DNA from: Dehalococcoidia bacterium
GTDB lineage: Bacteria > Chloroflexota > Dehalococcoidia > Lucifugimonadales > UBA2985
Direction of reading: 5' to 3'
DNA: 64,000 bases
NCBI GenBank assembly: GCA_015661155.1
Contig: JACVQK010000011.1
Location: 2,963-66,962, forward strand
Shown here in pieces: positions 330 to 51,430 of this stretch. The notes under the pieces are model-generated. The model was not told the origin of the DNA, ran no database searches, and saw only the letters and a program-made list of their open reading frames with translations. The first letter of the stretch is position 1. Every line of letters begins with the position of its first letter. The translations under genes were made by a program, and so were the position numbers.

Positions 330-561
330 CCTAGCAGGCTGATGAAAAAGGGGGAGCGCAGAGGGGCGCAGCCCCTTTGCCGGGGGTCTGGGGGTGTCCC
401 CCACTGGGCGTGGCCCAGACCCACATCTCACAAACCCTGATTTCAGCCTGCCGCCCATGAATACCTCTGAAGAGTGTGGGTGCAGGGCTTGCCCTGCCCC
501 CTTCCTGGCCAGGAAGGGGGCCAGGGGGATGGTCGAAAGGGTTTTTTCAACACCCTGCTAG
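330..561. repeat. family-A modular palindromic intergenic repeat, copy A1
   Basis: Module names used for all A copies: P1 CCCCCTTCCTGGCCAGGAAGGGGG; P2 GTCTGGGGGTGTCCCCCAGAC; P3 AGGGGCGAAGCCCCT; P4 CTGGGCTTAGCCCAG; P5 GTGTGGGTGCAGGGC..GCCCTGCACCCACAC; T, the terminal arm GATGGTCGAAAGGGTTTTTCAACACCCTGCTAG. A1 reads P3-P2(half)-P4-P5-P1-T and is bounded by inverted CTAGCAGG..TG / CA..CCTGCTAG ends. Confidence 0.85.
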
Positions 562-649
562 TTTAGGCAATACCCCTGGGCCTGTCAACGGTAGGGAGCG
601 GCCGAGCGCCGATAGCAGTCTGTTGTGAGAGGTCTTCCCAGGGGTTGTC

Positions 650-1216
650 CTACATCGGCTCCGACTCCAGGAGGCCATAGCCTCCGTTTACGCGGCGATA
701 GAGGACATTGTACTCACCGCTGGCGCTGTTGAAGAAGAAGAAGAAACCGTGGCCCAGGAACTCTATCTGGTCGATAGCCTCTTCCACGGACATGGGATTC
801 ATGGGGAACCTTTTCATCCGGACAACTCCTTGAGCCGCCAGGGGGTCTTCCTCTCCTCCTTCCTCTGGGGCCGTGGGCGCCATGGATGAGGTTCTCACGG
901 ACTCCCTGGACTGCTCACTTCTGTACAGCTTGCCCTTGAGCCTGTCCACCCTCCGGTCCAGGACCTCGACCACAGCGTCGATGGCGGCGTTTATGGTGGG
1001 AGCCCTCTCCTCACCCCGGAGGATGGTCCCGCTGCAGTTCAGGGTTACCTGGGCCACTATCCTTTCTTGCTGGGAGCGGGTGCTCTCCCTGGTCAGCTCC
1101 ACATCGACCTGGCCTATGTTGCTGATGTGGCGGCTCAGCCGGTCCAGCTTCTTGACGATGTAGCTTCTGGTCTCCTCGGAGATTCCGAGGTTCTTTCCCC
1201 GTATTACTGGTTCCAT
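650..1216 (-). CDS. hpf: ribosome hibernation promoting factor, long form
   Basis: Starts at internal Met17 of ORF 650..1264 (ATG 1216-1214 behind AGAGGA). The upstream codons lie in repeat A2. It has an S30AE/HPF N-domain (RGKNLGISEETRSYIVKKLDRL...) and the long-HPF C-terminal dimerisation domain (RFPMNPMSVEEAIDQIEFLGHGFFFF.N..SGEYNVLYRR..GGYGL). Confidence 0.9.
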   Translation of the reverse strand: MEPVIRGKNLGISEETRSYIVKKLDRLSRHISNIGQVDVELTRESTRSQQERIVAQVTLNCSGTILRGEERAPTINAAIDAVVEVLDRRVDRLKGKLYRSEQSRESVRTSSMAPTAPEEGGEEDPLAAQGVVRMKRFPMNPMSVEEAIDQIEFLGHGFFFFFNSASGEYNVLYRRVNGGYGLLESEPM

Positions 1217-1240
1217 TCTTCCTCTTTCAGCGTGAAGATG

Positions 1241-1400
1241 GCAGGGCGTGCCCTGCACCCACACCCAACTGTTACTGCGCTGGTCTGACCATGCTCTACG
1301 GTTCGTCAGGTGTGGGTCTGGGCCAAGCCCAGTCTGGGGAACACCCTCAGACCCCCGGCAGGGGCTTCGCCCCCTGCACCCCCCTTTGTTGATCTAATAG
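1241..1400. repeat. family-A repeat, copy A2
   Basis: Order P5-P4-P2-P3, inverted relative to A1, with no P1 or T. The sequence reads gcagggcgtgccctgcacccacac ... tgtgggtctgggccaagcccagtctgggg ... ggggcttcgcccc. Confidence 0.8.
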
Positions 1401-1478
1401 CACGATCGGTTACATTCTATTTCAACACGGGGTTTCCTTCAATGGAATCCCCTTGGATGTCGGCGCAAACCCTCCCTT

Positions 1479-2237
1479 TCACACTCCCGAGGGGGGCTCG
1501 CCCCGGAGAAGGCCGTGGGAACGGCTCAACGGCTCTCGGGCCAGGGTCACACCCCATACGGAGGCGGCCCCTGCTTCCTTGAGGGCCATGGCGCAGGACT
1601 CCAGGGTAGCGCCTGTGGTGCAAACATCGTCAACAACCGCCACCGCCATTCCTTCCACCAGGGAGGGGTGCAGGCAGCGAAAGGCGTCCCGAACGTTGGC
1701 CCTCCTCTCCTCCGCTCCGGGGCTCTTGACCTGGGGGGACGTGTCTTTTATGCGAGAGAGGGCATGGGGAATCACCGGAAGTCCAAGGCTCTTCCCAGCC
1801 TCTCGGGCGAGGAGGCATGCCTGATTGTACCCCCGCTGCCTCTCGCGCCGCCGGTGCAGGGGCACCGGCACCAGGGCTGTGACGGGCACCGCTTGTGAGA
1901 TCAGAGAGTCTGCCAGGAGCGCTCCCAGGAGGGGAGCCAGGGTCCGGAGGTTGTAGTACTTCAGGCGGTGGACGGCCTCTCTGATCGCTCCCTCCATGAG
2001 AAAGGGAGCCCGTATGCCATCTATGGCCAGGGGCGACGCCATGCATCGCTGGCACGTATCGCCGTAGGAGATGGGCTGGGCGCAGCGCAGACAGTAGGGA
2101 GGAGGCAGGTGAGAAAGGGAGGCACGGCAAGGGGAGCAAAGGAGCTGCCCATCCTTATCGCAGCCCACGCACCTGGGAGGAAAGAGCAGGTCCAGGGACG
2201 CCGACGCCAGGCGTGGGACGCCTTTTAGCAGATTCAA
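1479..2237 (-). CDS. comF: ComF family protein (phosphoribosyltransferase-type competence protein)
   Basis: Full ORF with a TTG start. The N-terminus has zinc-ribbon cysteine pairs (PPRCVGC..CSPC, CLRC..CQRC). The C-terminus has the PRTase motif VAVVDDVCTTGATL. Confidence 0.85.
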   Translation of the reverse strand: MNLLKGVPRLASASLDLLFPPRCVGCDKDGQLLCSPCRASLSHLPPPYCLRCAQPISYGDTCQRCMASPLAIDGIRAPFLMEGAIREAVHRLKYYNLRTLAPLLGALLADSLISQAVPVTALVPVPLHRRRERQRGYNQACLLAREAGKSLGLPVIPHALSRIKDTSPQVKSPGAEERRANVRDAFRCLHPSLVEGMAVAVVDDVCTTGATLESCAMALKEAGAASVWGVTLAREPLSRSHGLLRGEPPSGV

Positions 2238-2310
2238 CTTTCGCTCCCTCTTTCAGTGTGCTAAGATTACCCCTGCAATAGATGTTACCGCAAGAGGGGT
2301 TGCCTTTGCC

Positions 2311-3033: not shown

Positions 3034-3040
3034 AGCCAAG

Positions 3041-3206
3041 CTAGACTATTATGTCAACATAGGGGTGCAGGGGGGTGAAGCCCCCGTCGGGGGTCTGGGG
3101 GTGTCCCCCAGACTGGGCTTCGCCCAGACCCACGCCTCACAGACCCTGAATTCAGCTTGCCTATGAATGCCACTAAAGAGTGTGGGTGCAGGGCTCGCCC
3201 TGCTCA
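3041..3206. repeat. family-A repeat, copy A3
   Basis: Order P3-P2-P4-P5 (P5 truncated). It starts at CTAG 3041 and ends just before the AGGAGG RBS of the ABC ATPase gene. Confidence 0.8.
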
Positions 3207-3216: not shown

Positions 3217-3918
3217 ATGGAGCAACTCATCATCAAGGCCACGGGCATCTACAAGACCTACAACACAGGCAAGATAGAGGTGCACGCCCTCAGGGGCGTT
3301 GACCTGGCGGTCCGACGGGGGGAGATGGTGGCTATCATGGGGCCTTCCGGCTGCGGCAAGACGACGCTCCTCAACACCCTGTCGGGGCTCGATGACATCA
3401 ACCAGGGTGAGGTGATAATCGACGGTGCTCCCCTTCACACCATGTCGGACAGGAAGCGCACCCAGTACCGGGCCGAGAAGATGGGCTTTATCTTCCAGGC
3501 CTTCAACCTGCTGCCGGTGCTGAGCGCCGTGGAGAACGTGGAGCTCCCCTTGCTGCTGACGGGGGTGAAGTCGGGTCATGCCCGGCGGCGCGCGCTGGAG
3601 ACCCTGGCCCTGGTGGGTCTGGACGGGGAGGCGCCCAAGCGCCCCGCGGAGATGTCCGGCGGCCAGCAGCAGAGGGTGACCATAGCCCGGGCCCTGGTGA
3701 ACGAACCCGCCATTGTGTGGGCCGACGAGCCTACGGGAAATTTGGACAGCGAGACCTCTAACGAGATCATGGATGTGCTGTGCCGGATGAACAAGGAGAA
3801 AGGGCAGACCTTTGTGGTGGTCACCCACGACCTCGCCGTAGGCCACAGGGCGGACCGTATCGTGCATATGCGGGATGGTGTCATCGAGAGCGACCAGGCC
3901 AACCACGGGAGTAGATAA
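3217..3918 (+). CDS. ABC transporter ATP-binding protein (MacB/LolD-like)
   Basis: Walker [10 protein letters not shown], signature MSGGQQQRV, Walker [10 protein letters not shown] moved the start to ATG 3217 (5 nt after AGGAGG) because the first 20 track codons lie inside repeat A3. Confidence 0.9.
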
Positions 3919-6884
3919 TGGAAAAGCTGTTTGGTGTGCCCATCAATCAACTCATGGTCGCTCTACTGATCATCTTCGGCCTTGGGGTCGCCGCCATGGC
4001 CGTGGTTGCCCTGCAAAACCGGGTGATGCTCAAGATGGCGATGCGCAACATCCCCCGTCGCCGGGCGCAGACGGCCCTCATTGTGCTGGGGCTGATGCTG
4101 GCCACTCTGCTCTTTTCCGCCTCCTTCGCCACCGGGGATACCCTGTCTCATAGCATACGGGTCACCGCGGTGAGCAGGCTTGGACAGGTGGACATGGTGG
4201 TGAGGGAAGAGGCGCGAGCGGCGTCGGGCCGGATGGCCTACTTCGATGAGACCTATTTTGAGACGGTTCGGGAGCACCTATCGGTGGTGCCTGAGGTGGA
4301 GGGCATTGCGCCTCTGGCCTCCGAGACCACTCCAATACTGGCGCCGGCCACCCGCCAGAGCGAGCCCCAGGTGGATATCCTCGGCTATGACGAGGAGTGG
4401 ATGGGTGGATTTGACCGCCTGGTGGACGGAGAAGGGAACACCCTGTCTATCAGTGCCCTGGCCCCAGGCCAGGTGTACGTGAGCAGCGAGATCGCCCGGA
4501 AGCTGGAGGTGGGCACGGGCGATACCCTGGAGATGTTCCTGGGTGCGCAGCCCACCGCTCTGGAGGTGGCGGGCGTGTACCAGAAGGGGGCCAACCCCGC
4601 CGGGGAGCTCTCCCTGGTGATGCCCCTTGCCCGGCTCCAGGCGCTGACGGGCAACGAGGGGCGCATCAATGAAATCCTTATCAGCAATCGGGGCGGCGCT
4701 ATTTCTGGCGCGGCCCACACCGACGTGGTCACGTCCAGCCTTGAACCGCTGTTGAAGGGGAGCGGGCTTGAGGCCGACCCGGTGAAGCAGGACACCCTGC
4801 AGCAGGCCGAGCAGGTGGGCAGCATGTTCTCCAGCATCTTCCTCCTCTTCGGGCAGTTCTCCATCGCCGCGGGGATTCTGCTCATCTTCCTCATCTTCAT
4901 CATGCTGGCCGCGGAGCGGAAAAGGGAGCTGGGCATCGCCCGGGCCGTGGGCGCGCAGCAGGGCCACGTGGTACGCATGTTCGCTCTAGAGGGGGCCGCC
5001 TATGCCCTCATGGCCGCGGCCGTGGGCAGCCTCCTGGGAGTGCTGGTGGGATGGGGAATGGTCCGTATCCTAGCCGTGGCCTTTGGACAGAGGAGTCTGG
5101 AGCTGACCTTCGCCTTCAGCTGGCGCAGCGTGGTCATCGCCTATACCCTGGGAATGGTGTTCACCTTCGCGGTGGTGCTGGTCTCCTCCTGGCGGGTGAG
5201 CCGCCTCAACATCGTGCGGGCCATAAGGGACATTCCAGAGCCGCGCATCGACAGGAGAAGCCTCAAGGGCCTGATTCTAACCATACTACTGTCCCTGGCG
5301 GGAGTCCTCCTGGCGGGTCTTGGCCTCCAGAGTAAGCAGTTGGGGCCTTTCATGCTGGGGGTATCTCTGGTAATCATCGGCGTGCCTTTGCTGGCCCGGC
5401 GCCTGGGCCTGCCAGACCGGGCCACCTTTACCGCAGCAGGGCTGGGACTGGTGGTCTGGTGGCTTCTTCCTGCCTCTGTGTTGGACCCCATCCTGCCGGA
5501 GATGAAGATGGGCATAGAGATGTTCTTTCTCTCCGGCATGATGCTAGTTCTAGGAGCGGTGTGGGCCGTCATCTACAACTCGGACCTGCTGCTGAGGGCC
5601 ATGGTGCTGCTCTTCGGGCGCATACGGGGTCTGCCGCCGGTGCTCAAGACCGCCGTCTCCTACCCAATGCAGAACCGGTTCCGCACCGGCGTGACCCTGG
5701 CCATGTTCTCCCTGGTGGTGTTCACCCTCATGGTGATGGCCTTCATCATCCACTCCATGGCCGGGATGTTTGAGGACACGGAGCGATTAGCCGGTGGCTT
5801 CCATGTCCGGGCCGCCACCAGCTACGCAAACCCCATCCCGGACATCCAGGCCGCCCTGCAAGAGGTCAAGGACGTGCCTCCGGGCGACATCCTGGCTGTG
5901 GGAAGCCTTGCCGGGGCCAGGGTGGAGATGAAGCAGCTCTCTACCAACCAGGAGTTCGCGGACTTCTACCTCCAGGGCGTGGACAAGGGCTACACCGACA
6001 CCGTCACCTACAAGTTCACCATGACGGCGGAGGGCTACAGCTTGCCCAGGGGGGTGTGGCAGGCCCTTCAGGAAGAGCCGGGAACCGCGGTGGTCTCCTC
6101 CTACCTGGTGCCCACGAAGACCAACTACAACGTGGGTGGGTTTACCCCCCCCCTCCGCCTAGAGGGGTTCTGGCTGGGGGACGAGACCATTCCGGAGGTG
6201 TACATTCAGGCCCGGGACCCCCGCACCGGGAAGGAGCAGAGCCTTCGGGTCATCGGGGTGCTGACCGTGACCGCCGTCTACGCCGAGGGCGTGATCACCT
6301 CTCAGGACACATTGAACGCCCTGCTTTCTCAGCCAGTGCCTTCCCAGGCATACATGCTCCGGCTCAAGGCAGGGGTGGACGCCCTATCCACGGCCAGGGC
6401 CCTTGAGGCGAGCTTCTTGCGGAACGGGATGCAGGCGGAGGCGCTGGCGGAGGAGATTCGCAAGGGCGGCAGCACGTCGGTGATGATAAACAACCTGCTT
6501 CAGGGTTTCATGAGCCTGGGCCTGGTGGTGGGCATCGCCGCCCTGGGGGTCATCGCCGCCCGCTCCGTGGTGGAGCGCCGGCAGCAGATCGGGGTGCTGC
6601 GGGCCCTGGGCTTCCAGAAGAGCATGGTGCAGCTCTCCTTTCTGCTGGAGTCCTCCTTTATAGCCCTCCTGGGCATCGCCATAGGCATTGCCCTGGGATT
6701 CGGGGTAGCGCCCCAGGTGGTGGACTCGATGGGCACAGACCTGGAGGGCATCACCCTGCGGATACCCTGGCTCAACATCGCGTTGGTGGTGGTGGTTGCC
6801 TACGGGGCCTCGCTCCTCACCACCTACTTGCCGGCGAGGCAGGCGGCCAACATCTACCCCGCGGAGGCGCTGCGGTACGAGTAG
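3918..6884 (+). CDS. ABC transporter permease with two FtsX/MacB-type transmembrane modules
   Basis: 988 aa. The ATG overlaps the ATPase stop (TAATG). Two 4-TM FtsX-like blocks (about aa 300-430 and 860-988) are separated by large extracytoplasmic segments. Confidence 0.85.
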   Translation: MEKLFGVPINQLMVALLIIFGLGVAAMAVVALQNRVMLKMAMRNIPRRRAQTALIVLGLMLATLLFSASFATGDTLSHSIRVTAVSRLGQVDMVVREEARAASGRMAYFDETYFETVREHLSVVPEVEGIAPLASETTPILAPATRQSEPQVDILGYDEEWMGGFDRLVDGEGNTLSISALAPGQVYVSSEIARKLEVGTGDTLEMFLGAQPTALEVAGVYQKGANPAGELSLVMPLARLQALTGNEGRINEILISNRGGAISGAAHTDVVTSSLEPLLKGSGLEADPVKQDTLQQAEQVGSMFSSIFLLFGQFSIAAGILLIFLIFIMLAAERKRELGIARAVGAQQGHVVRMFALEGAAYALMAAAVGSLLGVLVGWGMVRILAVAFGQRSLELTFAFSWRSVVIAYTLGMVFTFAVVLVSSWRVSRLNIVRAIRDIPEPRIDRRSLKGLILTILLSLAGVLLAGLGLQSKQLGPFMLGVSLVIIGVPLLARRLGLPDRATFTAAGLGLVVWWLLPASVLDPILPEMKMGIEMFFLSGMMLVLGAVWAVIYNSDLLLRAMVLLFGRIRGLPPVLKTAVSYPMQNRFRTGVTLAMFSLVVFTLMVMAFIIHSMAGMFEDTERLAGGFHVRAATSYANPIPDIQAALQEVKDVPPGDILAVGSLAGARVEMKQLSTNQEFADFYLQGVDKGYTDTVTYKFTMTAEGYSLPRGVWQALQEEPGTAVVSSYLVPTKTNYNVGGFTPPLRLEGFWLGDETIPEVYIQARDPRTGKEQSLRVIGVLTVTAVYAEGVITSQDTLNALLSQPVPSQAYMLRLKAGVDALSTARALEASFLRNGMQAEALAEEIRKGGSTSVMINNLLQGFMSLGLVVGIAALGVIAARSVVERRQQIGVLRALGFQKSMVQLSFLLESSFIALLGIAIGIALGFGVAPQVVDSMGTDLEGITLRIPWLNIALVVVVAYGASLLTTYLPARQAANIYPAEALRYE

Positions 6885-11794: not shown

Positions 11795-13132
11795 GTGAGT
11801 ACCTTTTATCATGGCGATTGTCTCTTTGTCCTGAAGCACGATATAGCGCCTGAGTCTATAGACCTTATCTATCTTGACCCGCCCTTTTTCACAGGCAAGG
11901 TACAACGCGGGACATGGCAACCTGGGGCTATGGAGATTTCCTACGATGACTCCCGTCAATTCTGGGCTGACAGAGCAGGAGCCATGCGTGAGAAAGCACC
12001 TGAATGGCTCAAGCACATAGCTTTGAAACAGCCTGATTTTGCCTCATATCTCTGGTATATGATGGTCAGGCTTCAAGAAATGCATCGCGTGCTAAAACCA
12101 AGCGGAAGCATTTATTTTCACTGTGATTGGCGAGCCTCTACCTATCTAAAGATGGTCATTGACGAAGTATTTGGGGCTCAGAACTTTTTGAACGAGATTA
12201 TCTGGTGCTATGAAGACATCGGGGGCAGGGCAGTCAAATATTTCAAGCGGAAACATGACTCTATCTTTTTCTATCGGAAGTCTAATAAGCGCTCGACCTT
12301 CCATGCCCCTACAAAACCGCTTTCGCCAAGCACCATCAAACGCTATGGGAAGTATCTCGATGCCACAGGTAAGATAACATACCGACGCCTCCAGGAAACA
12401 AACCCTGGTGTTTTCCGGAAACTAAAAGGGGTTCCTGATGACCTTGACCTTGTTTGGATTGATGTGAACAAGGGCCAGCCATTGGGAGATTGGTGGGCCG
12501 ACATCTCGGCAATCAGGGTTGGATTCAATGAAAGTACAGGCTACCCAACACAAAAACCAGAGGCACTGTTGGAACGTATTATTAGAAGCAGCAGCAACGA
12601 TGGGGATGTTGTCTTAGACCCATTCTGTGGCTGTGGTACAACGGTTATTGCAGCCAGCAAGCTAAACAGGGAATGGATAGGTATAGACATTGATACTTCC
12701 CCACGGGAGAAGGGGCAGCTTCCCACGGCCTTCCAGGTCATTTCAAACCGCAGTCACTCGCTATTTCAGCAAGCCAAGTACATCACACGTGATCTTAGTG
12801 AGGTTATGGAAATGGACGGCCGCGCTTTTGAGGCGTGGGTGAACGAGTTCTACAGGGCTACAAAGCCTTCACCGGATCGGGGTGTAGATGGAATCACCCA
12901 TGACGGTATCCCTATTCAGGCCAAAACCTACGAAATCAAATACACCGTGTTGAGCCAGTTCATCACGGACGTAAAGTACCATCCAACTGTGCCGCAGCCT
13001 GTAAAGAAAGTCCGCGCAGTATCACAAACTGGATTTGACGATGGAGCGAGGCGAAGGAAGTTTGAGATAGAAACAGCTGAAGGCATTGAGGTGGAATTAG
13101 TCACTCCAGCAGAGCTATTGAGGTTGGAATAG
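11795..13132 (+). CDS. beta-class N6A/N4C DNA methyltransferase fused to a C-terminal Mrr-like (PD-(D/E)xK) nuclease domain
   Basis: GTG start 8 nt after AAGGGGG. Motif IV DPPF (IYLDPPFF) lies near the N-terminus and motif I FCGCGTT lies later, which is the beta-class order. The C-terminal about 120 aa contain RGVDGITHDGIPIQAKTYE, resembling the Mrr_cat D...(Q/E)xK core. The gene is clearly lower in GC than its neighbours. Confidence 0.8.
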   Translation: MSTFYHGDCLFVLKHDIAPESIDLIYLDPPFFTGKVQRGTWQPGAMEISYDDSRQFWADRAGAMREKAPEWLKHIALKQPDFASYLWYMMVRLQEMHRVLKPSGSIYFHCDWRASTYLKMVIDEVFGAQNFLNEIIWCYEDIGGRAVKYFKRKHDSIFFYRKSNKRSTFHAPTKPLSPSTIKRYGKYLDATGKITYRRLQETNPGVFRKLKGVPDDLDLVWIDVNKGQPLGDWWADISAIRVGFNESTGYPTQKPEALLERIIRSSSNDGDVVLDPFCGCGTTVIAASKLNREWIGIDIDTSPREKGQLPTAFQVISNRSHSLFQQAKYITRDLSEVMEMDGRAFEAWVNEFYRATKPSPDRGVDGITHDGIPIQAKTYEIKYTVLSQFITDVKYHPTVPQPVKKVRAVSQTGFDDGARRRKFEIETAEGIEVELVTPAELLRLE

Positions 13133-13213: not shown

Positions 13214-13304
13214 TAGAGGGTGTTTCCCCCTCTCTCACTCTCCCCCGTTGCACGGGGGAGAGAAATCCCTTCCCCCGTCTACGGGGGAAGACCAGGATGG
13301 GGGC
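13214..13304 (+). repeat. family-C double-hairpin repeat, copy C1 (short form)
   Basis: TAGAGGGTG..CTCTCCCCCGTTGCACGGGGGAGAG AAATCC CTTCCCCCGTCTACGGGGGAAG ..GATGGGGGC. The same two hairpins occur at 34496-34628 and, inverted, at 62297-62430. Confidence 0.8.
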
Positions 13305-16021: not shown

Positions 16022-17146
16022 ATGACATTGCCCACGGGGGAGGCCCATCCTTCCAGTGTGAGGGAGGCTTCCCACCCCAAAGTGGCGGTGGTATATACCA
16101 GGCCGGAGACGGTGCTGGAGGACATAGGCAGGGCCATGCGCCTGGCGGAGTACCAGGCCCACCTCCCGGCTAACATCCCCACCCTCCTCAAGATAAACAT
16201 CTCCTGGCAGCACTATTATCCCGCCTGCTCCACCTCTCCCTGGCAGCTTGAGGGGGTGATCAAGGCCATGAAGGAGGACGGCTACCGCGACCTCATCGCC
16301 GCCCACAACGGCACCGTGGTGGTGGACTCCTTCGAGGGGGAGGTGCGCAACAAGCAGAGGCCGGTGCAGGAGAAGTACGGTCTCCCCAGCGTCCACCTGG
16401 ACGTGCCCCCCAACCGGTGGATTCCCTACCAGCCCAAGGGTGAGATGCTGGTGCTGGACAAGATATTCCCCGAGGGCCTCACCATCCCGGAGATATTCCC
16501 CGGCAAGAACGTGCTCCACCTGCCCACCATGAAGACCCACGTCTTCACCACCATGACCGGGGCCATGAAAAACGCCTTCGGCGGCCTGCTGAACCGCAAA
16601 CGCCACTGGACCCACTCGGTCATCCACGAGACCCTGGTGGACCTCCTCACCATCCAGAAGGAGATACACCCGGGCATCTTCGCCGTTATGGACGGGACCT
16701 TCGCCGGGGACGGCCCCGGCCCCAGGGCCATGCGGTGGCACGAGAAGAACGTCTTCCTGGCCAGCGCCGACCAGGTGGCCATCGACGCCGTGGCCGCCAG
16801 GATGATGGGCTTCGACCCCATGTCCATCAAGTTCATCCGGCTGGCCCACGAGAGGGGCCTGGGCTGCGGCGACACCTCCCAGATAGAGGTGGTGGGAGAG
16901 GACATATCGGGGGTGAACTGGCGGTTTGAAGGCACAAAGAACACCCTTGCCAGCCGGGGCCAGAAGCTCATCTACTGGGGGCCTCTCAAGCCCCTGGAGA
17001 ACCTGCTGCTGAGGAGTCCCATAGCACCCTGGGCTTTCTTCGCCTCCAATTTGTATCACAACGAGTACTGGCTCCGCTTCATCGGCAATCGACGTGTCAA
17101 GGCGGCCATGAAAACGGGATGGGGCCAGCTCTTCCAGCGATATTAG
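16022..17146 (+). CDS. DUF362 domain-containing protein
   Basis: The conserved DUF362 core is LLKINISW...TMKTH..T..TGAMKN.FG.L......H......L.DL......MDG..AGDGPGP. I prefer ATG 16022 (after GAGGGA) to GTG 16007. The stop TAG 17144-17146 lies in the terminus of repeat A4. Confidence 0.8.
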   Translation: MTLPTGEAHPSSVREASHPKVAVVYTRPETVLEDIGRAMRLAEYQAHLPANIPTLLKINISWQHYYPACSTSPWQLEGVIKAMKEDGYRDLIAAHNGTVVVDSFEGEVRNKQRPVQEKYGLPSVHLDVPPNRWIPYQPKGEMLVLDKIFPEGLTIPEIFPGKNVLHLPTMKTHVFTTMTGAMKNAFGGLLNRKRHWTHSVIHETLVDLLTIQKEIHPGIFAVMDGTFAGDGPGPRAMRWHEKNVFLASADQVAIDAVAARMMGFDPMSIKFIRLAHERGLGCGDTSQIEVVGEDISGVNWRFEGTKNTLASRGQKLIYWGPLKPLENLLLRSPIAPWAFFASNLYHNEYWLRFIGNRRVKAAMKTGWGQLFQRY

Positions 17147-17293
17147 CAGGGTGTTGAAAACCCTTACGACCATCCCCCTGGCCACCTTCCTGGCCAGGAA
17201 GGTGGAAGAATTTGAATCTGGGGGACACCCCCAGACCCCCGCCAGAATGGGCTTCGCCCCCTCTGGACCCCCCTTTTCCCGCACCCTGCTAGG
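17144..17293. repeat. family-A repeat, copy A4
   Basis: Order T-P1(variant)-P2-P3. Ends are TAGCAGGGTG ... CACCCTGCTAGG. Confidence 0.85.
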
Positions 17294-25593: not shown

Positions 25594-25635
25594 AACCACG
25601 GCCGTACCCCCGAGGTTTTTCCCATTGTACCATGG

Positions 25636-32276: not shown

Positions 32277-32515
32277 GGAAGACCGAGACTATCCCCTTTT
32301 TGGCGAATTGTACCACATGCGCACCGTGACGAGCCTGCGACGATGGCAGGGCACGACGGCGGGGCCGGGATGTGTCGCATCTCTCTGACCGTTTCCTACG
32401 GACCCGCCTCCCTGACGAAGAGACGCCTTGGTGGAAGCTCACAAGGAATCTGATATACTTACTGGAGCGACATCAAGGCAGCACCCCTGGGGTCGAAATC
32501 CGAAGGATGAGCGCT

Positions 32516-34498
32516 ATGCAGCACCGATACTCCCGCTGGGATGACACCCAGTCCTCTGATGCTCCATCCCCTGAAGAGCTGATGGAGCACATGGCCCAGG
32601 AGATATGGAGAGGCCAGGACCTGAGTAGCCTCCTGCGGCGCATGCTCCAGAGGGGTGCACAGCTCCCCCAGGGCCAGCGCATGATGGGTCTCCAGGAGCT
32701 GCTGAAGCGGCTGCGCGGAGCTAGGGATAGCCACCTCCAACAGCACAACCTGGCCTCGGTCTTCGATGATATCCAGGAGAGGCTTGAGCGCGTCCTGGAA
32801 ACGGAGCGAGCGGGCATCCAGAGCCGCCTGGATGAGATGGACAGGGCCTCCTCTCCCCAGGACATGCCGACCAGCCAGGAGAGCCGGGATGGCGTTGACC
32901 CGTCCATGGAAGACCTCTTCCGTCGCATGGCGCAAAGCCACCTGGAGCAACTGGACCGTCTGCCTCCCGGCGCAGGCGGGCGAATCAAAGAGCTGAGGGA
33001 CTACGATTTCCTCGACCCGGAGGCCCGCCAGCAGTTCGAAGAGCTGCTGAAGACGCTGCAACAGCAGGTGCTCCAGAGCTACTTCCAGAACTTGGAGCAG
33101 GGTATCCAGAACATGACGCCGGAGGCGCTGCGCCAGACCCAGCAGATGGTTCACGACCTGAACCAGCTCTTCCAGCAGCGGCTCCAGGGGCAGAACCCGG
33201 ACATAAGCTCCTTCATGGCCAAGTGGGGCCAGGCCTTCCCCGAGGGCATCGAGACCTTCGATGAGCTGGCAGAGCACCTGGAGCGACAGATGGCCCAGAT
33301 GGAGTCCCTCCTCAACTCCATGCCGACCGAGATGCGCCGCCAGCTGGACGAGATGATGCAGGCGCTTCTACGAGACAATCGGCTCCAGGTGGACCTGATG
33401 CAGCTGGCAGCGAATCTGGAGAAGCTCTTCCCAGACCGCAGGAGACACTCCCCGTTCTCCCTGTCCGGTGACGAGCCCATCACCCTCCAGGAGGCCCTGA
33501 AGCTGATGGGCGACCTGAACAGCCTGGAGACGCTGGAGCGAGAGGTGAGAGAGGCCATGCGCTCCAACGATGCCTCCAGGCTCGACCCAGACGAGGTCGG
33601 CCGCCTTCTGGCGGGCTTCATAAGACGCAAGGGGGATGACTGGGAGCTGACGCCCTTCGCGATCAGGAAAATCGGGGAGCGGGCGCTGAAGGAGATCTTC
33701 AGCAAGCTCGGAAGGCGGAGCGCTGGAGAGCATTCTCTGGAGCAAAGCGGCATGGGCGTTGAGCCCCTGGAAGAGACGAAACGTTACGTGTTTGGTGATC
33801 CTCTGCACCTGGACAGCCTGAAGACCGTGAAGAACGCCGTCCTCCGCGAGGGTCCCGGAACGCCGGTGCACCTCCGTCCTGAGGACTTTGAGGTCAACCG
33901 TACCACCATCTTGACCAAGTGCTCCACGGTCATCGCCCTGGACATGAGCTATTCGATGATTGGGGCGGGCTATTTTCAGATAGGCCAGAGGGTGAGCCTG
34001 GCCCTGGACACGCTGATTCGCACCAGGTATCCCAAGGATAAGGTCTTCGTCACCGCCTTCTCCTATTTCGTGCTGCCCCTCAAGCCCTCGATGCTCCTGG
34101 ACACCCACTGGGTGGAGTACGGAGGCGGCACCAACCTCCAGGAGATGCTCCGCCAGGCCCGTAAGATGCTTGCCGGGGAGGGGGGCACCAAACAGATCAT
34201 CCTGGTGACCGACGCCCAGCCCACCACTCACAACGGTTGGTGGGGCGACGACACCACTTGGCGGGGTCATCGCAGGGGAGCGGGAGTGCTGGAGGAGACG
34301 TTGCAGGAGGTGGCCCGCTGCACCAGGGAGCACATCACCATCAACACGTTCATGATGGGCCGAGACCCGGCCCTGCTGAACTTTGTGCGCCTCATGACCA
34401 AGATGAACCGCGGCCGCGCCTTTCTGGTGACTCCGGAGCGCCTCGGCGAGTACGTGCTGCTGGACTATGTGAAGATGCGGAACAGGGTACTCCACTAA
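32516..34498 (+). CDS. von Willebrand factor type A (vWA) domain protein with a long coiled-coil-like N-region
   Basis: The family-typical N-terminus is MQHRYSRWDDTQ (ATG 32516, 9 nt after GAAGGA; the track ORF starts at 32372). The C-terminal vWA domain has the MIDAS motif DMSYSM and ..GGTN...ILVTDAQPT. Confidence 0.8.
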   Translation: MQHRYSRWDDTQSSDAPSPEELMEHMAQEIWRGQDLSSLLRRMLQRGAQLPQGQRMMGLQELLKRLRGARDSHLQQHNLASVFDDIQERLERVLETERAGIQSRLDEMDRASSPQDMPTSQESRDGVDPSMEDLFRRMAQSHLEQLDRLPPGAGGRIKELRDYDFLDPEARQQFEELLKTLQQQVLQSYFQNLEQGIQNMTPEALRQTQQMVHDLNQLFQQRLQGQNPDISSFMAKWGQAFPEGIETFDELAEHLERQMAQMESLLNSMPTEMRRQLDEMMQALLRDNRLQVDLMQLAANLEKLFPDRRRHSPFSLSGDEPITLQEALKLMGDLNSLETLEREVREAMRSNDASRLDPDEVGRLLAGFIRRKGDDWELTPFAIRKIGERALKEIFSKLGRRSAGEHSLEQSGMGVEPLEETKRYVFGDPLHLDSLKTVKNAVLREGPGTPVHLRPEDFEVNRTTILTKCSTVIALDMSYSMIGAGYFQIGQRVSLALDTLIRTRYPKDKVFVTAFSYFVLPLKPSMLLDTHWVEYGGGTNLQEMLRQARKMLAGEGGTKQIILVTDAQPTTHNGWWGDDTTWRGHRRGAGVLEETLQEVARCTREHITINTFMMGRDPALLNFVRLMTKMNRGRAFLVTPERLGEYVLLDYVKMRNRVLH

Positions 34499-34628
34499 GA
34501 GGGTGCTTCCAGAGGGATGCGCCACATTGCGAACCGTCTGCCCCCTCTCTGACTCTCCCCCGTTGCACGGGGGAGAGAAATCCCTTCCCCCGCTCGCGGG
34601 GGAAGGTTAGAATGGGGGCCTTCCGCGG
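34496..34628 (+). repeat. family-C double-hairpin repeat, copy C2 (long form)
   Basis: Starts on the vWA stop codon (TAAGAGGGTG). It aligns over about 130 bp with the reverse complement of 62297-62430. Confidence 0.85.
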
Positions 34629-34818
34629 CTTGGGGGACACTCTCTAAGATATCCTTGTCCCTTAGATATTCGTCTCCTTAAAGCTGCCCCAAGAACCCTC
34701 GTGGTGCATTCCAAGTCCCGACGTGGTAACATTGGGCGGTTTTGCACAATAGTGGCAACGCCACAGGCGGCCCCTCCGTGGCTGGCTCCAGAGCGTTGCG
34801 AGAAGGAGCTCCGTATAG

Positions 34819-39668: not shown

Positions 39669-39814
39669 GACAGGGTGCTGAAGAAACCCTTCGACCATCC
39701 CCCTGGCCCCCTTCCTAGCCAGGAAGGGGGAAGGATTCATATCTGAGGGACACCCTCAGACCCCCGGCAAAGGGGCTTCGCCCCTCTGCACTCCCCTTTT
39801 CCAGCAACCTGCTG
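39669..39814. repeat. family-A repeat, copy A8
   Basis: Order T-P1-P2(variant CTGAGGGACACCCTCAG)-P3. Confidence 0.85.
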
Positions 39815-41779: not shown

Positions 41780-41930
41780 AACAGGGTGTTGAAAAATCCC
41801 TTCGACCATCCCCCTGTCCCCCTTCCTGGCCAGGAAGGGGGTAAATTTTGTATCTGGGGGACACCCCCAGACCCCACCAGAAGGGGCTTTGCCCCCTCTG
41901 GACTCCCCCTTTCCCTCACCCTGTGCTGAG
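41780..41930. repeat. family-A repeat, copy A9
   Basis: Order T-P1-P2-P3. Confidence 0.85.
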
Positions 41931-45000: not shown

Positions 45001-45693
45001 ACGCCGATAGGCACGCGGCTCCAGCGCCTCACCGAGGCGGCGCGGAGGCTGAAAGAGGCCACACCGGCCCTGGAGGACGCGGTGTCCACATGGAAGGGCC
45101 TCTCTTCCGTGGAAGCCTCCTCCCTGGCGGCTCGCACCGTGGAGACCGTCTCCACCGTCCTCGCGGCTTCGCCGGAGGTGGCGGAGCCTCAGCCCACGGT
45201 GGCCATCCCCGGCCAGACGAACTCCGTCCTGTGGGACACTCCCCGGGGCATCGGGGTTGTGGGCGCGGATGACGGAGCAGACCCGGCCACCCTGGCCGGC
45301 CTGGTCTTCGGGGCATTGCTGGCTGGCAACGGCCTGACCATGGCTGTCACCCCGGGGCCGGCGCGTGTGTCCCAGGTCCTGGCGGCTTGCCTCCACCAGG
45401 CAGGAGTCCCCAGAGACGTTCTGGCCCTGGCGCCGCGTGGCGTCTCTCCGGAGACGCTGGCCGCCGGCCCCATCCACTTCGCCGCGGTGGACCTGGCGCT
45501 GGAGCGGACGCGGGCCCTATACCGGGTTCTCGGCGCTACACCGGAGGAGGCGGGGCAGAGGTGGCTGAAGGCCCTGATCAGCGTCGGCGAAGGCCCACGC
45601 CCTGGGGAGCCAGGGTTCCTTCGGCGATTCGCCCTGCCCAAGGCCGTCTCCATCCGCACCCTGCGGCACGGCGCCGACCTGAAGCTGCTCTAG
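42085..45693 (+). CDS. putA: bifunctional proline dehydrogenase / L-glutamate gamma-semialdehyde (P5C) dehydrogenase, long form with an ALDH-like C-terminal domain
   Basis: PRODH motifs RLVKGAYWD and YVPVGDLITGMAYLVRRILENTSQAGFL. ALDH motifs EMGGKNA and GQKCSACSR. An extra C-terminal region of about 230 aa follows. I prefer ATG 42085 (after GAGGA) to 42025. The stop TAG lies in the terminus of repeat A10. Confidence 0.85.
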   Translation: MNAHPQEGVEARTQELGRVLYTRLQAHRPFMSEGPQDWLMALLMGDQALRNRLLRLVDVLAVFPDDLSGSQTASLFREYFGSDLRHLPGWSRLLLATARSPLVPSPLLAWLLRRGTRLVAGRFVVQSGPGSLENSLGRLAKEGRYPTFDLLGEAVLGEEEALRYRAGYLELLERLGRHPLARRRTPGGAPCLEVSLKLSSLSCQFNPADPEGTLRRVRPPLTELCLAAQARGIGVTIDAEQYRYRELAWHIFQETMSPGGPQVTAFARRRGTPFRVRLVKGAYWDQEVIVAEQAGWPVPVYRDKNATDLTFQRILGLLLETSPLTQVAVASHNVRAHAHAEAVREAVGLPEGAVEHQTLYGTLAGLSQALPQMGWVARDYVPVGDLITGMAYLVRRILENTSQAGFLARNRLREDAAELLRAPQPGPEDLSYRRPPHSTGFVNTPAPRLFDAVERERFQRALAETRARWGATYPLHLGSEVLTSSHLVPSCSPSHPDPSHPVGWVHLANLEETERAIAVTNTAAPLWAATSVAERAAIGLRAAEILRARKEEVGAWVVHEGGRTWPEALADVEEAIDHIAWNAHELHRLAHQIEESYRPLGVVACIPPWNFPTALAAGMTSAALMAGNAVILKSAGPTPIVAQALVQLLHEAGIPRDVLIHLPGPGSTVGARLVESPDVDMVAFTGSKEVGTWIHRTASRVALRKGGLKRVIAEMGGKNAIVVFPDADMDEAVSGILVSAFGHAGQKCSACSRVLAHRRVYGQLAHRLVEAARSLPVGPADDPGTIINPVIDSAARARIASYGEMARREGRVLLDALDSDQQGSLNIGPLIVEVEASKARTARVAQEEIFGPILTLTPFDTEEEAVSLANSTVYALTLGVFSRSPGTVARMVQSCRAANIYVNREITGARVGIEPFGGFQLSGTGPKAGSEEYLLAYLTRRSGFRAAGEPLQDSQGPNVGEGFPARVGTWELTPIGTRLQRLTEAARRLKEATPALEDAVSTWKGLSSVEASSLAARTVETVSTVLAASPEVAEPQPTVAIPGQTNSVLWDTPRGIGVVGADDGADPATLAGLVFGALLAGNGLTMAVTPGPARVSQVLAACLHQAGVPRDVLALAPRGVSPETLAAGPIHFAAVDLALERTRALYRVLGATPEEAGQRWLKALISVGEGPRPGEPGFLRRFALPKAVSIRTLRHGADLKLL

Positions 45694-45912
45694 CAGGGCG
45701 GGCCCTGCACCCACACTCAACTGTCGCTGCCATGGTCTGACCATGGTCCGACCGTGTTCTACGGTTCGTAAGGCGTGGGTCTGGGCCGTGCCCAGTCTGG
45801 GGGAGTGCAGAGGGGGCAAAGCCCCCTCTGACGGGGGTCTGAGGGTGTCCCCCAGATTCAAATTCTTCCCCCTTCCTGGTCAGGAAGGGGGCCAGGGGGA
45901 TGGTCGAATGGT
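45690..45912. repeat. family-A repeat, copy A10
   Basis: Order P5-P4-P3-P2-P1-T(partial). It starts with CTAGCAGGGC. Confidence 0.85.
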
Positions 45913-46245: not shown

Positions 46246-46389
46246 GCAGGTTGCTGAAAAAAGGTGTGCAGAGGGGCGAAGCCCACTTTGCCGGGGGTCT
46301 GGGGGTGTCCCCCAGAGTCAAATTCTTCCCCCTTCCTGGCTAGGAAGGGGGCCAGGGGGATGGTCGAAGGGGTCTTTCAGCACCCTGCC
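46244..46389. repeat. family-A repeat, copy A11
   Basis: Order P3-P2-P1-T. It starts with TAGCAGGTTGCTGAAAAAA and ends with CAGCACCCTGCC. Confidence 0.85.
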
Positions 46390-46405
46390 ATGTAGTCATC
46401 GCCGT

Positions 46406-46488
46406 GCCCAGGTGGCGGAACGGTAGACGCCGCGGACTTAAAATCCGCTCTCCGAAAGGGGGTGTGGGTTCGATTCCCTCCCTGGGCA
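46406..46488 (+). tRNA. tRNA-Leu (anticodon TAA)
   Basis: Acceptor GCCCAGG/CCTGGGC, with U8. D arm GCGGAACGGTAGACGC. Anticodon stem GCGGA/TCCGC with loop CTTAAAA (anticodon at 46439-46441). Long variable arm. Discriminator A. CCA is not encoded. Confidence 0.9.
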
Positions 46489-46552
46489 TGAAGCGACTGC
46501 GTCGCGTATGTCAGAGGCTGCGCAAGCTGGTTGATTATGACTTGTAGAGAGA

Positions 46553-47353
46553 CTACCTGTTTCCATAAGGCTGTTCCAAATTAAGCCTCATGCTGCCGTC
46601 GGATAGATTGCCAGTAACTTGTGCTCGCCAGTCTCCGGAGATATGAGACGAGGTATGCACGGATTTGGCTTGGCATATCCATGTTGGAACGAAGGAGGAA
46701 TCTGTTTGGTGTGGGTCAAAGGTAAACCGAGGGCGACATGACTCAATCGATGTTTCAAGGGGTATAATCGTGGCCCTCCAGGCAATGAGGCGTACAAGGG
46801 TTTGTGTAGTGGGATTGCCCTCCACATAGCTTCTCAGAGAGTCAAGGTTGCGTACCTTAAGGTCGGCAAGGTAGCGGTTGACCAATGCTAGAGCTTCGGC
46901 CTCCGGTGAGGGCAGCGTGACTCCTCTGAACTCGACCACGTAGTTCTGAGAAAGGTGCTCGTTGCCTTCATCGTTCCTATCGAGGGCCAGGCTATATTCG
47001 CAAGCAGACCCCTCGGATATCCGTAGATTGTCCATTAGAGCGACGTCTTTGGATATCACGCTGAATGAGCCGTAAGGCTCGGCAAGTATCCTCAGACTAC
47101 TGTCACTAGGATTGTATACCGCTAGTTTCATGTAGCGTTCCCCGCTCGGATATTCAGTCCAACAGTACATCCCCTGTACAATCGCAGGCCCAAGACTTAC
47201 GGAAGTGAATGTTGAAGGCACAGGTATGCTAGGTATGAGGGGTGTCGGGGTGGGCTCTGGTGAAGTGCCACCAATATTTATCTGAATACATGCCTGCAGC
47301 GCAAATGCTGTGAGCAGAAACGTGGCCAAGCCGATGAGACGCAAGGCAACCAT
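46553..47353 (-). CDS. hypothetical lipoprotein (orphan, lower GC)
   Basis: 266 aa. Signal peptide MVALRLIGLATFLLTAFALQAC with a Cys at the cleavage-type position, followed by a Pro/Thr linker. I recognise no family. Composition is visibly AT-richer than the flanks. Confidence 0.65.
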   Translation of the reverse strand: MVALRLIGLATFLLTAFALQACIQINIGGTSPEPTPTPLIPSIPVPSTFTSVSLGPAIVQGMYCWTEYPSGERYMKLAVYNPSDSSLRILAEPYGSFSVISKDVALMDNLRISEGSACEYSLALDRNDEGNEHLSQNYVVEFRGVTLPSPEAEALALVNRYLADLKVRNLDSLRSYVEGNPTTQTLVRLIAWRATIIPLETSIESCRPRFTFDPHQTDSSFVPTWICQAKSVHTSSHISGDWRAQVTGNLSDGSMRLNLEQPYGNR

Positions 47354-48423: not shown

Positions 48424-48507
48424 GCCCAGGCGGCGGAACGGCAGACGCCGCGGACTTGAAATCCGCTCCCCGAAATGGGGGTGTGGGTTCGATTCCCTCC
48501 CTGGGCA
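48424..48507 (+). tRNA. class II tRNA with a UGA (serine) anticodon on a leucine-type body; near-duplicate of tRNA-Leu(TAA)
   Basis: The acceptor, D arm, anticodon stem, T arm and discriminator A are the same as 46406-46488. The differences are C8 for U8, one D-loop base, the anticodon loop CTTGAAA (anticodon TGA at 48457-48459) and a few variable-arm bases. The upstream flank ATCGCCGT is also shared. Confidence 0.75.
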
Positions 48508-48509
48508 CT

Positions 48510-49897: not shown

Positions 49898-50701
49898 ATG
49901 AGCACCTTCCACGAGAAGCTGGCCGAAGCCTCCAGGAGAAACAGTTCCATCCTGTGCGTGGGGCTGGACCCGGACCCCGCCCTCATGCCGGTGAAGAGCG
50001 TTTTCGAGTTCAACCGGGCCATCATCGATGCCACGGCAGACCTGGTGTGCTGCTACAAGCCAAATTTGGCCTTCTACGAGGCCCTGGGCATGGACGGACT
50101 GGAGGCCCTTCTCCGAACCCTTGAGCGCATCCCCAGAGACATCCCCGTCATCGGCGACGCCAAGCGGGGAGACATCGGCTCCACCGCCCAGGCCTACGCC
50201 AGGGCCATGTTCCAGCAGTGGGGCTTCGATGCCGCAACCGTCAACCCCTACCTGGGGAGCGACGCCGTGGAGCCTTTTCTTGAGTACGCCGACAGGGGCA
50301 TCTTCGTGCTCTGCCACACCTCCAACCCCGGAGCCTCGGAGGTGCAGGAGCTGACCGTCCAGGGCAGCCCACCTCGCCCCCTCTACGAGCATGTGGCCCT
50401 CAAGGCCCAGGAATGGAACTGCCGGGGCAACGTGGGCCTGGTCATGGGCGCTACCTATCCCCAGCAGCTGCAAGGGGTGCGCCGCCTGTGCCCCGACATG
50501 CTCATGCTGATTCCCGGCATCGGAGCTCAGGGTGGAGACCTGGAAGAGTCCATCAAGAACGGCGTAAACAGCCAAGGAGAGGGCATCATCATCAACGCGT
50601 CCAGGAGCATCCTCTACGCCTCCAGGAGCAGCGATAAGTTCGCCGGCGAGGCGCGGAGAGCGGCCCAGGAGCTACGGAAGCAGATAAGCAGGGCCCGATA
50701 A
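49898..50701 (+). CDS. pyrF: orotidine 5'-phosphate decarboxylase (type 2)
   Basis: Starts at Met22 of ORF 49835..50701. MSTFHEKL..LCVGLDPD, the catalytic motif GDAKRGDIGST, and ..PGIGAQGG. Confidence 0.9.
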   Translation: MSTFHEKLAEASRRNSSILCVGLDPDPALMPVKSVFEFNRAIIDATADLVCCYKPNLAFYEALGMDGLEALLRTLERIPRDIPVIGDAKRGDIGSTAQAYARAMFQQWGFDAATVNPYLGSDAVEPFLEYADRGIFVLCHTSNPGASEVQELTVQGSPPRPLYEHVALKAQEWNCRGNVGLVMGATYPQQLQGVRRLCPDMLMLIPGIGAQGGDLEESIKNGVNSQGEGIIINASRSILYASRSSDKFAGEARRAAQELRKQISRAR

Positions 50702-50712
50702 GGGGCGGGGCG

Positions 50713-50940
50713 ATGGTCATGGAGCTGGGCGTGGGCGACATCGTCACATTGCGCAAGGTTCACCCATGCGGCAGCTACCTGTGGGAGGTGTACCGTCTGG
50801 GAGCGGACATCGGCCTCCGGTGCACGGTATGCGGCCGCAGGCTCCTCATGGAGCGCCGCCTGCTGGAGAAAAGGGTCAAAGAGGTGTCACCGTCCAGGCA
50901 GGGCTCGCCCTGCACCCACACTCCTCAGAGGCATTCATAG
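50713..50940 (+). CDS. DUF951 family protein with a repeat-encoded C-terminal tail
   Basis: DUF951 core GDIVTLRKVHPCGSYLWEVYRLGADIGLRCTVCGRRLLMERRLLEKR. Codons 61-75 (SRQGSPCTHTPQRHS) lie inside repeat A12. Confidence 0.75.
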   Translation: MVMELGVGDIVTLRKVHPCGSYLWEVYRLGADIGLRCTVCGRRLLMERRLLEKRVKEVSPSRQGSPCTHTPQRHS

Positions 50941-51065
50941 ATAGGCCGAAATCTGGGTCTGTGAGATGTGGGTTTGGGCTAAGCCCAGTCTGGGGGACAC
51001 CCCCAGACCCCCGTCAGAGGGGCTTCGCCCCTCTGCACACCCCATTCTTCAGCAACCTACTAGGG
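50895..51065. repeat. family-A repeat, copy A12
   Basis: Order P5-P4-P2-P3, ending CAGCAACCTACTAGG. Confidence 0.85.
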
Positions 51066-51073
51066 AGGCCAGC

Positions 51074-51229
51074 TCAGGAGCGGGTCACGTGAGGAAGGGC
51101 GACGAAGTACAGGATGGCCAGAAGGACCACCACCGCGCCCTGAGCCTCTTTGTCCGAGGCTGTGTAGTAGACCGCCGCCACGACACCCGCGAGGAGTATC
51201 ACGATGTTGAGAATCCGCAGCGAACTCAT
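51074..51229 (-). CDS. hypothetical small membrane protein (51 aa)
   Basis: Internal ATG (51229-51227) of ORF 51074..51385, 6 nt after GGAGG. MSSLRILNIVILLAGVVAAVYYTASDKEAQGAVVVLLAILYFVALPHVTRS has two hydrophobic helices. It is sandwiched between repeats A12 and A13. Confidence 0.45.
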   Translation of the reverse strand: MSSLRILNIVILLAGVVAAVYYTASDKEAQGAVVVLLAILYFVALPHVTRS

Positions 51230-51353
51230 TTGCAACCTCCTCGTGATCGTTCGTGTCGTATCGGCGTCTCCGCGCCATCCAGAGGCAACTACGACCGCGG
51301 ACATTGTACCCGCAACTCGACCTGGCCGCAAGCCCTCGCTACGAATACTCGCC

Positions 51354-51430
51354 CCAGCAGGATGATGAAAAACCCTTTCGACCATCCCCCTGCACCCTTC
51401 CTGGCCAGGCAGGGCACGCCCTGCCTCCTA
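51354..51430. repeat. family-A repeat, copy A13 (short)
   Basis: T arm, then half of P1 fused to a P5-like hairpin (CCAGGCAGGGCACGCCCTGCCTCC). Its terminal CTAG supplies the ALDH stop codon. Confidence 0.8.

Follow-up and report, generated by a model that had tools for sequence, protein, structure and literature searches.

MITEs, or miniature inverted-repeat transposable elements, are non-coding sequences of 70-300 bp with terminal inverted repeats (TIRs) of 15-30 bp, as exemplified by Correia/NEMIS of Neisseria, RUP of Streptococcus and ERIC/YPAL, and repetitive extragenic palindromic (REP) sequences are palindromes of 20-40 bp tagged with GTAG or CGTC (PMC3733652). The insertion sequence IS5 duplicates 4 bp with the motif 5'-(C/T)TA(A/G)-3' (PMC5009759). 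Here we analysed 64,000 nucleotides of the Dehalococcoidia bacterium assembly GCA_015661155.1 (contig JACVQK010000011.1, positions 2,963 to 66,962 of the forward strand; this whole stretch is called the window below, and its first letter is position 1), in which a preliminary description had noticed 13 hairpin-built intergenic blocks and had judged them closer to REP mosaics than to a simple MITE. The analysis makes it highly probable that the 13 blocks are copies of one MITE family, that is, of a non-coding and non-autonomous DNA transposon, and gives about an even chance that the transposase behind it is specifically of the IS5 type. The family is apparently a clearly defined, undescribed one of an ordinary known kind and part of a broader Dehalococcoidia superfamily; in the searched literature, MITEs were not found described for either Chloroflexi or Dehalococcoidia.

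One collinear layout in 13 blocks

Sensitive self-BLASTN of the window recovered the same 13 places that had been picked out by eye, each with up to 16 mutual matches, and the modules quoted in the preliminary description recur in the blocks with few mismatches. When five window copies and ten copies from other genomes were aligned together with their flanks, similarity across the 15 sequences was found to begin and end abruptly at CAGGGTGNTGAAAAA and TTTTTCANCACCCTG. The true element ends are CAGGGTGNTGAAAAA and its inverse, which bound the complete copies as a TIR of 15 bp, and the adjoining CTAG is the duplicated target and lies outside the element. In the full-length copy, the type A copies and the type B copy at 25636 (types defined below), the pairing of CAGGGTGNTGAAAAA with TTTTTCANCACCCTG leaves 0-3 mismatches at each end; other type B copies are atypical in their ends. 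The earlier view of the blocks as MITE-like elements with inverted-repeat ends is thus upheld, with the correction that the arm CCTTTCGACCATCCCCC, which had been taken as the cap, is only the subterminal part beside one TIR. TIR position 5 is variable and showed no covariation with its partner in the opposite TIR when the alignment was inspected by eye, which suggests that the two ends behave as independent binding sites rather than as a selected stem.

With one module set annotated on all blocks, a single collinear order was found in each of the 13, namely TIR, arm, hp1, hp5, spacer (A or B), hp4, hp2, hp3 and TIR. The preliminary description had each copy using the modules in a different subset, order and orientation; the blocks do differ in module subset and in the orientation of the whole element, but not in order. 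The full-length layout is kept only by the element at 335-557 (223 bp). Type A has hp5 through hp4 deleted and comprises six copies of 140-142 bp, starting at 17147, 22438, 24678, 39671, 41782 and 46247, plus one truncated copy (45805). Type B (~160-185 bp) is without TIR, arm and hp1, and its copies at 1241, 3041 and 50899 open with a hairpin, CAGGGCG..., that resembles the TIR tip in its first bases; the exception is the copy at 25636, which retains the TIR-arm end, and two type B copies (1241 and 3041) have a variant right terminus. Two blocks, 22357-22580 and 45690-45912, are composite: in each, an inverted type A element adjoins the left half of a type B copy. TIR-to-TIR distances in the window and in the related loci of other genomes are discrete (132-144, 159-169, 178-195 and 225-231 bp), and the length classes are deletion derivatives of one 223-bp layout. 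Complete copies span 140-223 bp and have no coding capacity; the open reading frames (ORFs) across them are frame artefacts, and the recurring peptides already recognised as fake are translations of hp1-arm-TIR and of hp2. The 13 blocks total 2,182 bp (3.4% of the window) and are nearly all intergenic, and the window copies are ~86% alike, that is, they differ by ~14%.

The mosaic look of the blocks, which had been put down to combinatorial shuffling, is accounted for by internal- and terminal-deletion subfamilies, by whole-element orientation and by the two composite blocks. Mosaics like those of REP sequences and bacterial interspersed mosaic elements (BIMEs) would consist of independent palindromic units in free combination. 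A RAYT-type tyrosine transposase would have dispersed these, or the host would retain them for uses such as mRNA stabilisation or the binding of DNA gyrase or IHF. Such an origin would suit blocks made of several GC-rich palindromes, the varying partners and termini of the hp2-hp3 unit in other Dehalococcoidia elements, and the occurrence of a ~27-nt unit at two different internal positions. However, the module order in the window is fixed, the ends are sharp, with TIRs and 4-bp target-site duplications, GTAG occurs in no block and CGTC merely sporadically, leaving the hairpins untagged, and no Y1_Tnp or RAYT protein was found among the window ORFs with Pfam or NCBIfam. We consider a REP/BIME-like nature highly improbable, and the earlier leaning towards it is not sustained.

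Target-site duplication and mobilisation

Among 32 candidate TIR pairs from the window and the related loci, ~26 of which were judged to be real copies, 12 have a perfect direct repeat of 4 bp on their two sides, and in seven more the flanks match at three of the four positions. CTAG, TTAG or CTAA make up ten of the 12 perfect duplications, and the rest are CTAT and CTAC, so that the target consensus is YTAR-like. Eight of the 12 (two TTAG, four CTAA, one CTAT and one CTAC) are not palindromic and therefore cannot be inverted-repeat extensions, which indicates that four bases are duplicated and not TA alone. These counts come from a family-specific analysis, which replaced a de novo caller of TIRs and target-site duplications run around every core match; the caller was discarded because it picked chance inverted repeats and ran through the palindromic CTAG.

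The length of the duplication bears on the alternative of an IS630/Tc1-mariner-type MITE, in which the element would read GCAGGGTG...CACCCTGC and would insert into CTAG with only the central TA duplicated. CTAG is the classic IS630 target, TA stands on both sides of nearly all copies, and the CAGGGTG tip presumably resembles mariner and Tc1 ends. Nevertheless, the flanking bases 1 and 4 vary between copies and match within a copy as direct repeats (TTAG, CTAA in four cases, CTAT and CTAC), and each such flank, when read as an inverted repeat, gives only two matches out of four, which makes an IS630-type origin very unlikely.

For the MITE family proposed here, a DDE transposase, in all likelihood an IS5-type one whose gene lies elsewhere, would bind the terminal repeats in trans and cut at the CA...TG tips, and the element would enter a staggered 4-bp cut at YTAR. 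Copies would then accumulate harmlessly on stop codons or right behind them, and intergenic gaps would fill up with them. One strand or both of every YTAR reads TAG or TAA, and this GC-rich genome has four times fewer CTAG sites than expected (53 in the window against 218 from base composition); usable targets would concentrate at gene ends for these reasons. Block edges hold eight of the 53 CTAG sites, and six flanking genes terminate in the duplicated target or within a TIR. A flank TAG serves as the stop of the DUF362 gene, ORF 21325-22359, the PutA gene and the aldehyde dehydrogenase gene, and a flank TAA as that of the MetE-like gene. The preference for YTAR, a motif scarce in GC-rich coding DNA, would be a simple reason why elements stack on gene ends and sometimes supply the stop codon. 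Gaps between genes in tandem, convergent or divergent arrangement carry copies, as does a gap between tRNA genes; both orientations occur, without bias relative to the flanking genes, and this pattern argues against a dedicated regulatory role. The internal GC-rich hairpins would be the structurally constrained parts, for which binding of the transposase or a host factor, or an RNA-level effect, are candidate roles.

Relatives outside the window were collected with an exact 20-mer of hp2 as the search pattern in a one-genome-per-species collection. At least 110 stretches contained it, from 60 assemblies among the matches listed, of which one is a Dictyobacter and ~50 are metagenome-assembled genomes (MAGs) of Dehalococcoidia or Chloroflexota, with groundwater, Lake Baikal and the Black Sea among the habitats sampled. 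Relatives with the conserved two-hairpin core hp2-hp3 are thus present in ~50 other Chloroflexota assemblies among the matches listed, and closed Dehalococcoidia genomes such as OZ252215.1, OZ253478.1 and CAWHBS010000001.1 are among the carriers. The loci hold ~138 related blocks in unrelated flanks, and full type A copies were found in at least ten other assemblies. Four copies of the MAG SMAG_U2862 share 92% identity and the window copies 86%, against 81% in comparisons of window with foreign copies, and this partial clustering by genome is the pattern expected of within-genome amplification bursts.

Many of the foreign 20-mer matches lie at contig ends, and related repeats standing so often at contig ends in other MAGs would be in keeping with an assembly or chimerism artefact. 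The window blocks, by contrast, are internal to a 64-kb colinear housekeeping stretch, have diverged by ~14% and sit each in its own gap with intact neighbouring ORFs, and the probability of such an artefact is negligible.

Several observations weigh against the MITE family as proposed. Neither the window nor 658 kb of related loci yielded an autonomous element with these ends. The search for such a partner covered TIR pairs at insertion-sequence length, unpaired TIRs beside ORFs, and inverted repeats of at least 16 nt that are 0.7-3.5 kb apart, and it gave only gene-flanking MITE pairs in the window and the loci; a motif scan of the six-frame ORFs of the loci found no IS5-type (DDE_Tnp_1) protein motifs. 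The claim that no transposase is present in the window was confirmed with Pfam on all sizeable ORFs and with NCBIfam on the five ORFs that Pfam had left unassigned or poorly assigned. With no autonomous element found, only the duplication and the weak likeness of the TIRs to those of IS5 point to the transposase family. Moreover, the left end of type B is atypical, as is the right end of two type B copies, and only one window copy (335-557, CTAG/CTAG) has a perfect duplication, with four more matching at three of four positions. The scarcity of intact duplications fits old copies, and their age is also suggested by the mutual likeness of only ~86%. The nearest relative of the window PutA among the proteins of other genomes is only 66% identical, so that there is no empty orthologous site for comparison; a metagenome scan with PutA returned only relatives at 63% and 58%, in which neither a recognisable element copy nor synteny was seen apart from one weak 57-bp match in locus L111. 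Exact-protein look-ups with QueG and PutA, made in search of an empty site, gave no record, tRNA synteny with L085 is not conserved, and all-against-all comparison of the loci yielded no pair with and without the insert. Finally, two properties of the hairpins are not obviously predicted by a purely selfish, decaying element: across families, eight of the nine hp3 pairs have changed on both sides, above both controls, and the hp2 sequence is highly conserved, its 20-mer being identical in dozens of species in flanks that range from AT-rich to GC-rich.

Hairpin structure and the hp2-hp3 core

The type A consensus folds into a TIR stem around three hairpins, with z of about -5.4 to -7 against shuffles. 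Variation within type A is too low for a covariation test, and two compensatory events were found. Between element families the sequence of hp3 differs and its hairpin is always kept. The hp2-hp3 core is common to at least four element families among loci L001-L110 with different termini and left hairpins (for example L003, L014, L022 and L089; L012, L070 and L099; L009, L010, L016 and L086), one of which, in Dehalococcoidales MAGs with visibly AT-rich flanks, has the ends GAGACTGCTGAAA...TTTTTCAGCGGTCTC.

From this, the elements or their core might be viewed mainly as a structured RNA or a protein-binding DNA module (a terminator, a processing site, a small RNA or an anti-Shine-Dalgarno sponge), for which transposition would be the means of delivery only. 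The kept pairing of hp3, the invariant hp2 20-mer and the folding of the consensus far better than shuffles speak for such a module, as does a G-U asymmetry of 25 pairs on one strand versus eight on the other. Other points count against it. Since the relatives were collected by their hp2 sequence, the invariance of hp2 is partly ascertainment; the strand difference in G-U pairs stems mainly from one inherited A/C position and is thus not independent evidence for an RNA function; and templated repair can keep palindrome pairing without selection. The lack of orientation bias in the window also tells against it, and in the Rfam search of the window only tRNAs reached the gathering score, a cutoff of E<=1 adding only sub-threshold matches at chance level. 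No terminator-like site was found within the blocks at 16-27 kb and no hairpin is directly followed by a T-run, the T-run downstream of hp3 beginning only ~9 nt later. An element or core that is mainly such a module is improbable in our judgement; as a layer on top of transposition, the core might conceivably have a role of this sort.

A narrower proposal concerns the core by itself (ATCTGGGGGACACCCCCAGACCCCCG, a variable-sequence hairpin and GGACTCCCC), which might be a functional protein-binding DNA site or structured RNA that has been exchanged or captured among Dehalococcoidia MITE families with different termini. The core also resembles tandem hairpins upstream of the terminase gene in a group of uncultured phages. 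We regard the proposal as unlikely; if it were true, the elements would be more than decayed transposons, namely vehicles of a cis-acting structure that they have in common.

The phage contigs in question (L192-L205, IMG/VR; ~46% GC) contain a GC-rich island with the tandem hairpins GCTGGGGCTCTGCCCCAGACCCCG and then CTGGGGGACACCCCCAGACCCCCG. The island (in L200, for example, 4380-4590) has CAGATAGTC...ACTATCAG as its brackets and stands immediately upstream of the gene for the large terminase; no match to it was found among annotated phage records. L199 instead has Dehalococcoidales-type elements. The ~27-nt unit mentioned above (CCCTTCGGCTTCGCTCAGGGCAAGCTCCG and variants) is inserted in otherwise normal elements either between hp2 and hp3 (L013, L018, L027, L034, L069, L076, L084 and L102) or inside hp1 (L055 and L020), and could be a tiny independently moving insert or a product of recombination between elements. 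In the Streptomyces loci L036, L059 and L092 an identical 26-mer (ATCT, the 20-mer and CG) lies within an SMR/SugE-like locus; in L092 a 34-nt stretch seemingly takes the place of one codon between GWSIGM and YTDGFTRL and would shift the frame. In L062 and L095 the exact 20-mer stands in other surroundings, and chance in high-GC DNA may account for such matches.

Window copies, their surroundings and known systems

The only full-length copy (element 335-557, minus strand, spacer B) occupies 331-561 together with its perfect CTAG/CTAG duplication (331-334 and 558-561). It is followed by the type B copy 1241-1400 (plus strand), which consists of hp5, spacer A, hp4, hp2 and hp3, has the left end CAGGGCG... 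and the variant right end TTGTTGATCTAATAG, and lies between the start of the HPF gene and the stop of the upstream gene. The type B copy 3041-3206 (minus strand, spacer B), with CTAG at 3041 and a variant end, is downstream of a HAD hydrolase gene. The 142-bp type A copy 17147-17288 (plus strand; TIR, arm, hp1, hp2, hp3, TIR) is flanked by TTAG and CTAG, and its left flank repeat holds the TAG stop of the DUF362 gene (17144-17146). Directly after the TAG stop of ORF 21325-22359 stands a type B left fragment, 22360-22437 (plus strand), with hp5 and part of spacer B; abutting it is the 140-bp type A copy 22438-22577 (minus strand), in whose flank the MetE-like gene, on the minus strand, ends with TAA (22578-22580).

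The 141-bp type A copy 24678-24818 (plus strand) has the flanks CCAG and CTAG, and an alpha/beta-hydrolase ORF on the minus strand extends 8 nt into its right TIR, with the stop TGA at 24811-24813. On the other side of the hydrolase gene, in the divergent gap to an M1 peptidase gene, is the 184-bp type B copy with the TIR-arm left end, 25636-25819 (plus strand), which has lost hp1 and half of hp5. The hydrolase gene is thus bracketed by elements over 24678-25819, with outer TIRs facing and 1,144 bp apart as in a composite transposon, and no evidence of movement of the bracketed gene was found; a similar bracket around an alcohol dehydrogenase gene in L007 is made of another repeat. The 141-bp type A copy 39671-39811 (plus strand; flanks CTGA and CTGG) lies in the convergent gap between MatE and ABC genes and shows a compensatory G-C to A-T change in hp2, and the 142-bp type A copy 41782-41923 (plus strand) lies in the divergent gap between ABC and PutA genes.

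Directly after the CTAG containing the PutA stop codon follows a type B left half, 45694-45804 (plus strand; hp5, spacer A, hp4 and the first half of hp2), which is joined through GGGGGA microhomology to an inverted type A element without its outer TIR, 45805-45912 (minus strand), the boundary between the two being approximate. The 141-bp type A copy 46247-46387 (minus strand) is placed between tRNA-Cys and tRNA-Leu(TAA). At 50899-51059 (plus strand), a type B copy with spacer B has a normal right TIR followed by CTAG, and the short fragment 51358-51427 (plus strand) shows TIR, arm and half of hp1, then an hp5-like hairpin; the aldehyde dehydrogenase gene (minus strand) has its stop codon within the CTAG that comes after the fragment. 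As described earlier, the last 12.5 kb carry no block, and self-BLASTN found no additional member of the family anywhere in the window, the part after 51,430 included, but the absence is unremarkable because only ~2.5 copies would be expected there (Poisson probability ~0.08).

The preliminary description had missed three copies of a second small repeat on the minus strand (13226-13304, 34492-34629 and 62296-62434). It consists of two hairpins, CTCTCCCCCGTTGCACGGGGGAGAG and CCCTTCCCCCGCTCGCGGGGGAAGG, with ends GAGGGTG... beside CTAA or CTAG, and is probably a related MITE; its core is 97% identical in the MAG JACQOS (L055). A near-perfect 110-bp palindrome of the GTCATTGCGAGG...CCTCGCAATGAC type lies at 28567-28676, and a similar unit adjoins the hp2 core in L011.

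At ~63% GC and with a strong bias in GC at third codon positions (GC3), the window is chromosomal DNA of an ordinary sort, and its genes are of housekeeping type, including those for HPF, Mfd, transketolase, QueG, MetE, M1 peptidase, MatE and ABC transporters, PutA, PyrF, Cmk, GlmS and PpsA. Two large divergent ORFs with gene-like GC3, 29256-32276 (minus strand, 1006 aa) and 32372-34498 (plus strand, 708 aa), have no sequence match in Pfam, NCBIfam or PDB. Three ORFs of low GC (0.54-0.57), at 11795-13132, 46553-47353 and 62695-63999, may have been acquired horizontally; the trio encodes an N6/N4 DNA methylase, a product without match and a Schlafen/AlbA_2-domain protein. The tRNA called as Ser (anticodon TGA) at 48424-48508 is ~95% identical to tRNA-Leu(TAA) at 46405-46489, the likeness extends ~10 nt upstream and the discriminator base is A; it looks like a duplicated tRNA-Leu gene with the anticodon changed from TAA to TGA. 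The tRNA-Ser(gct) called by ARAGORN at 3522-3595 lies within the ORF of an ABC-transporter ATPase, receives no support from Rfam and is probably a false positive.

The Dehalococcoidia, abundant bacteria of subsurface and aquatic settings, are for the most part uncultured and known nearly only from MAGs. A high-copy MITE superfamily would explain spurious ORFs, recurring pseudo-peptides and unusually long intergenic gaps in their genomes and, because many copies lie at contig ends, also the fragmentation of their assemblies. The family could be used to type strains of these lineages and to follow horizontal exchange and the activity of transposases in them, and it leaves the understanding of how MITEs work unchanged.

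Compared with known systems, the window family shares with REP sequences, BIMEs and REPINs the GC-rich extragenic palindromes, the mosaic look and the filling of intergenic gaps, whereas the marks of REPs, namely 20-40-bp units, GTAG or CGTC tags, absence of TIRs and duplications, and RAYT genes nearby, are all lacking. Like MITEs derived from IS630/Tc1-mariner, it is a small TIR-bounded element in a CTAG or TA-rich target, but it duplicates four bases where a 2-bp TA duplication would be expected. A target duplication of 4 bp with the YTAR motif is found in IS5 as well. With the E. coli IS5 end GGAAGGTGCGAA the window TIRs have an AnGGTGC core in common, and the foreign copy L066 reads GAAGGTGCTGAA; the match to the E. 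coli IS5 ends amounts to 10/16 identities at the best of nine offsets, with the tip displaced by 1 nt, and is suggestive only. IS5 itself is 1.2 kb long, carries a DDE transposase gene and has the tip GG, in contrast to the tip CA and the absence of a transposase in the window family. From described MITEs the family differs in its uncultured Dehalococcoidia host, its several internal hairpins, the covarying hp3, a parent insertion sequence not found in the searched loci, and the duplication of 4 bp at YTAR, as against TA in Correia and RUP. It is like the MITEs of other bacteria in its size and TIRs, in being non-coding and folding strongly on itself, in the many copies scattered over intergenic sites, and in having subfamilies marked by deletions.

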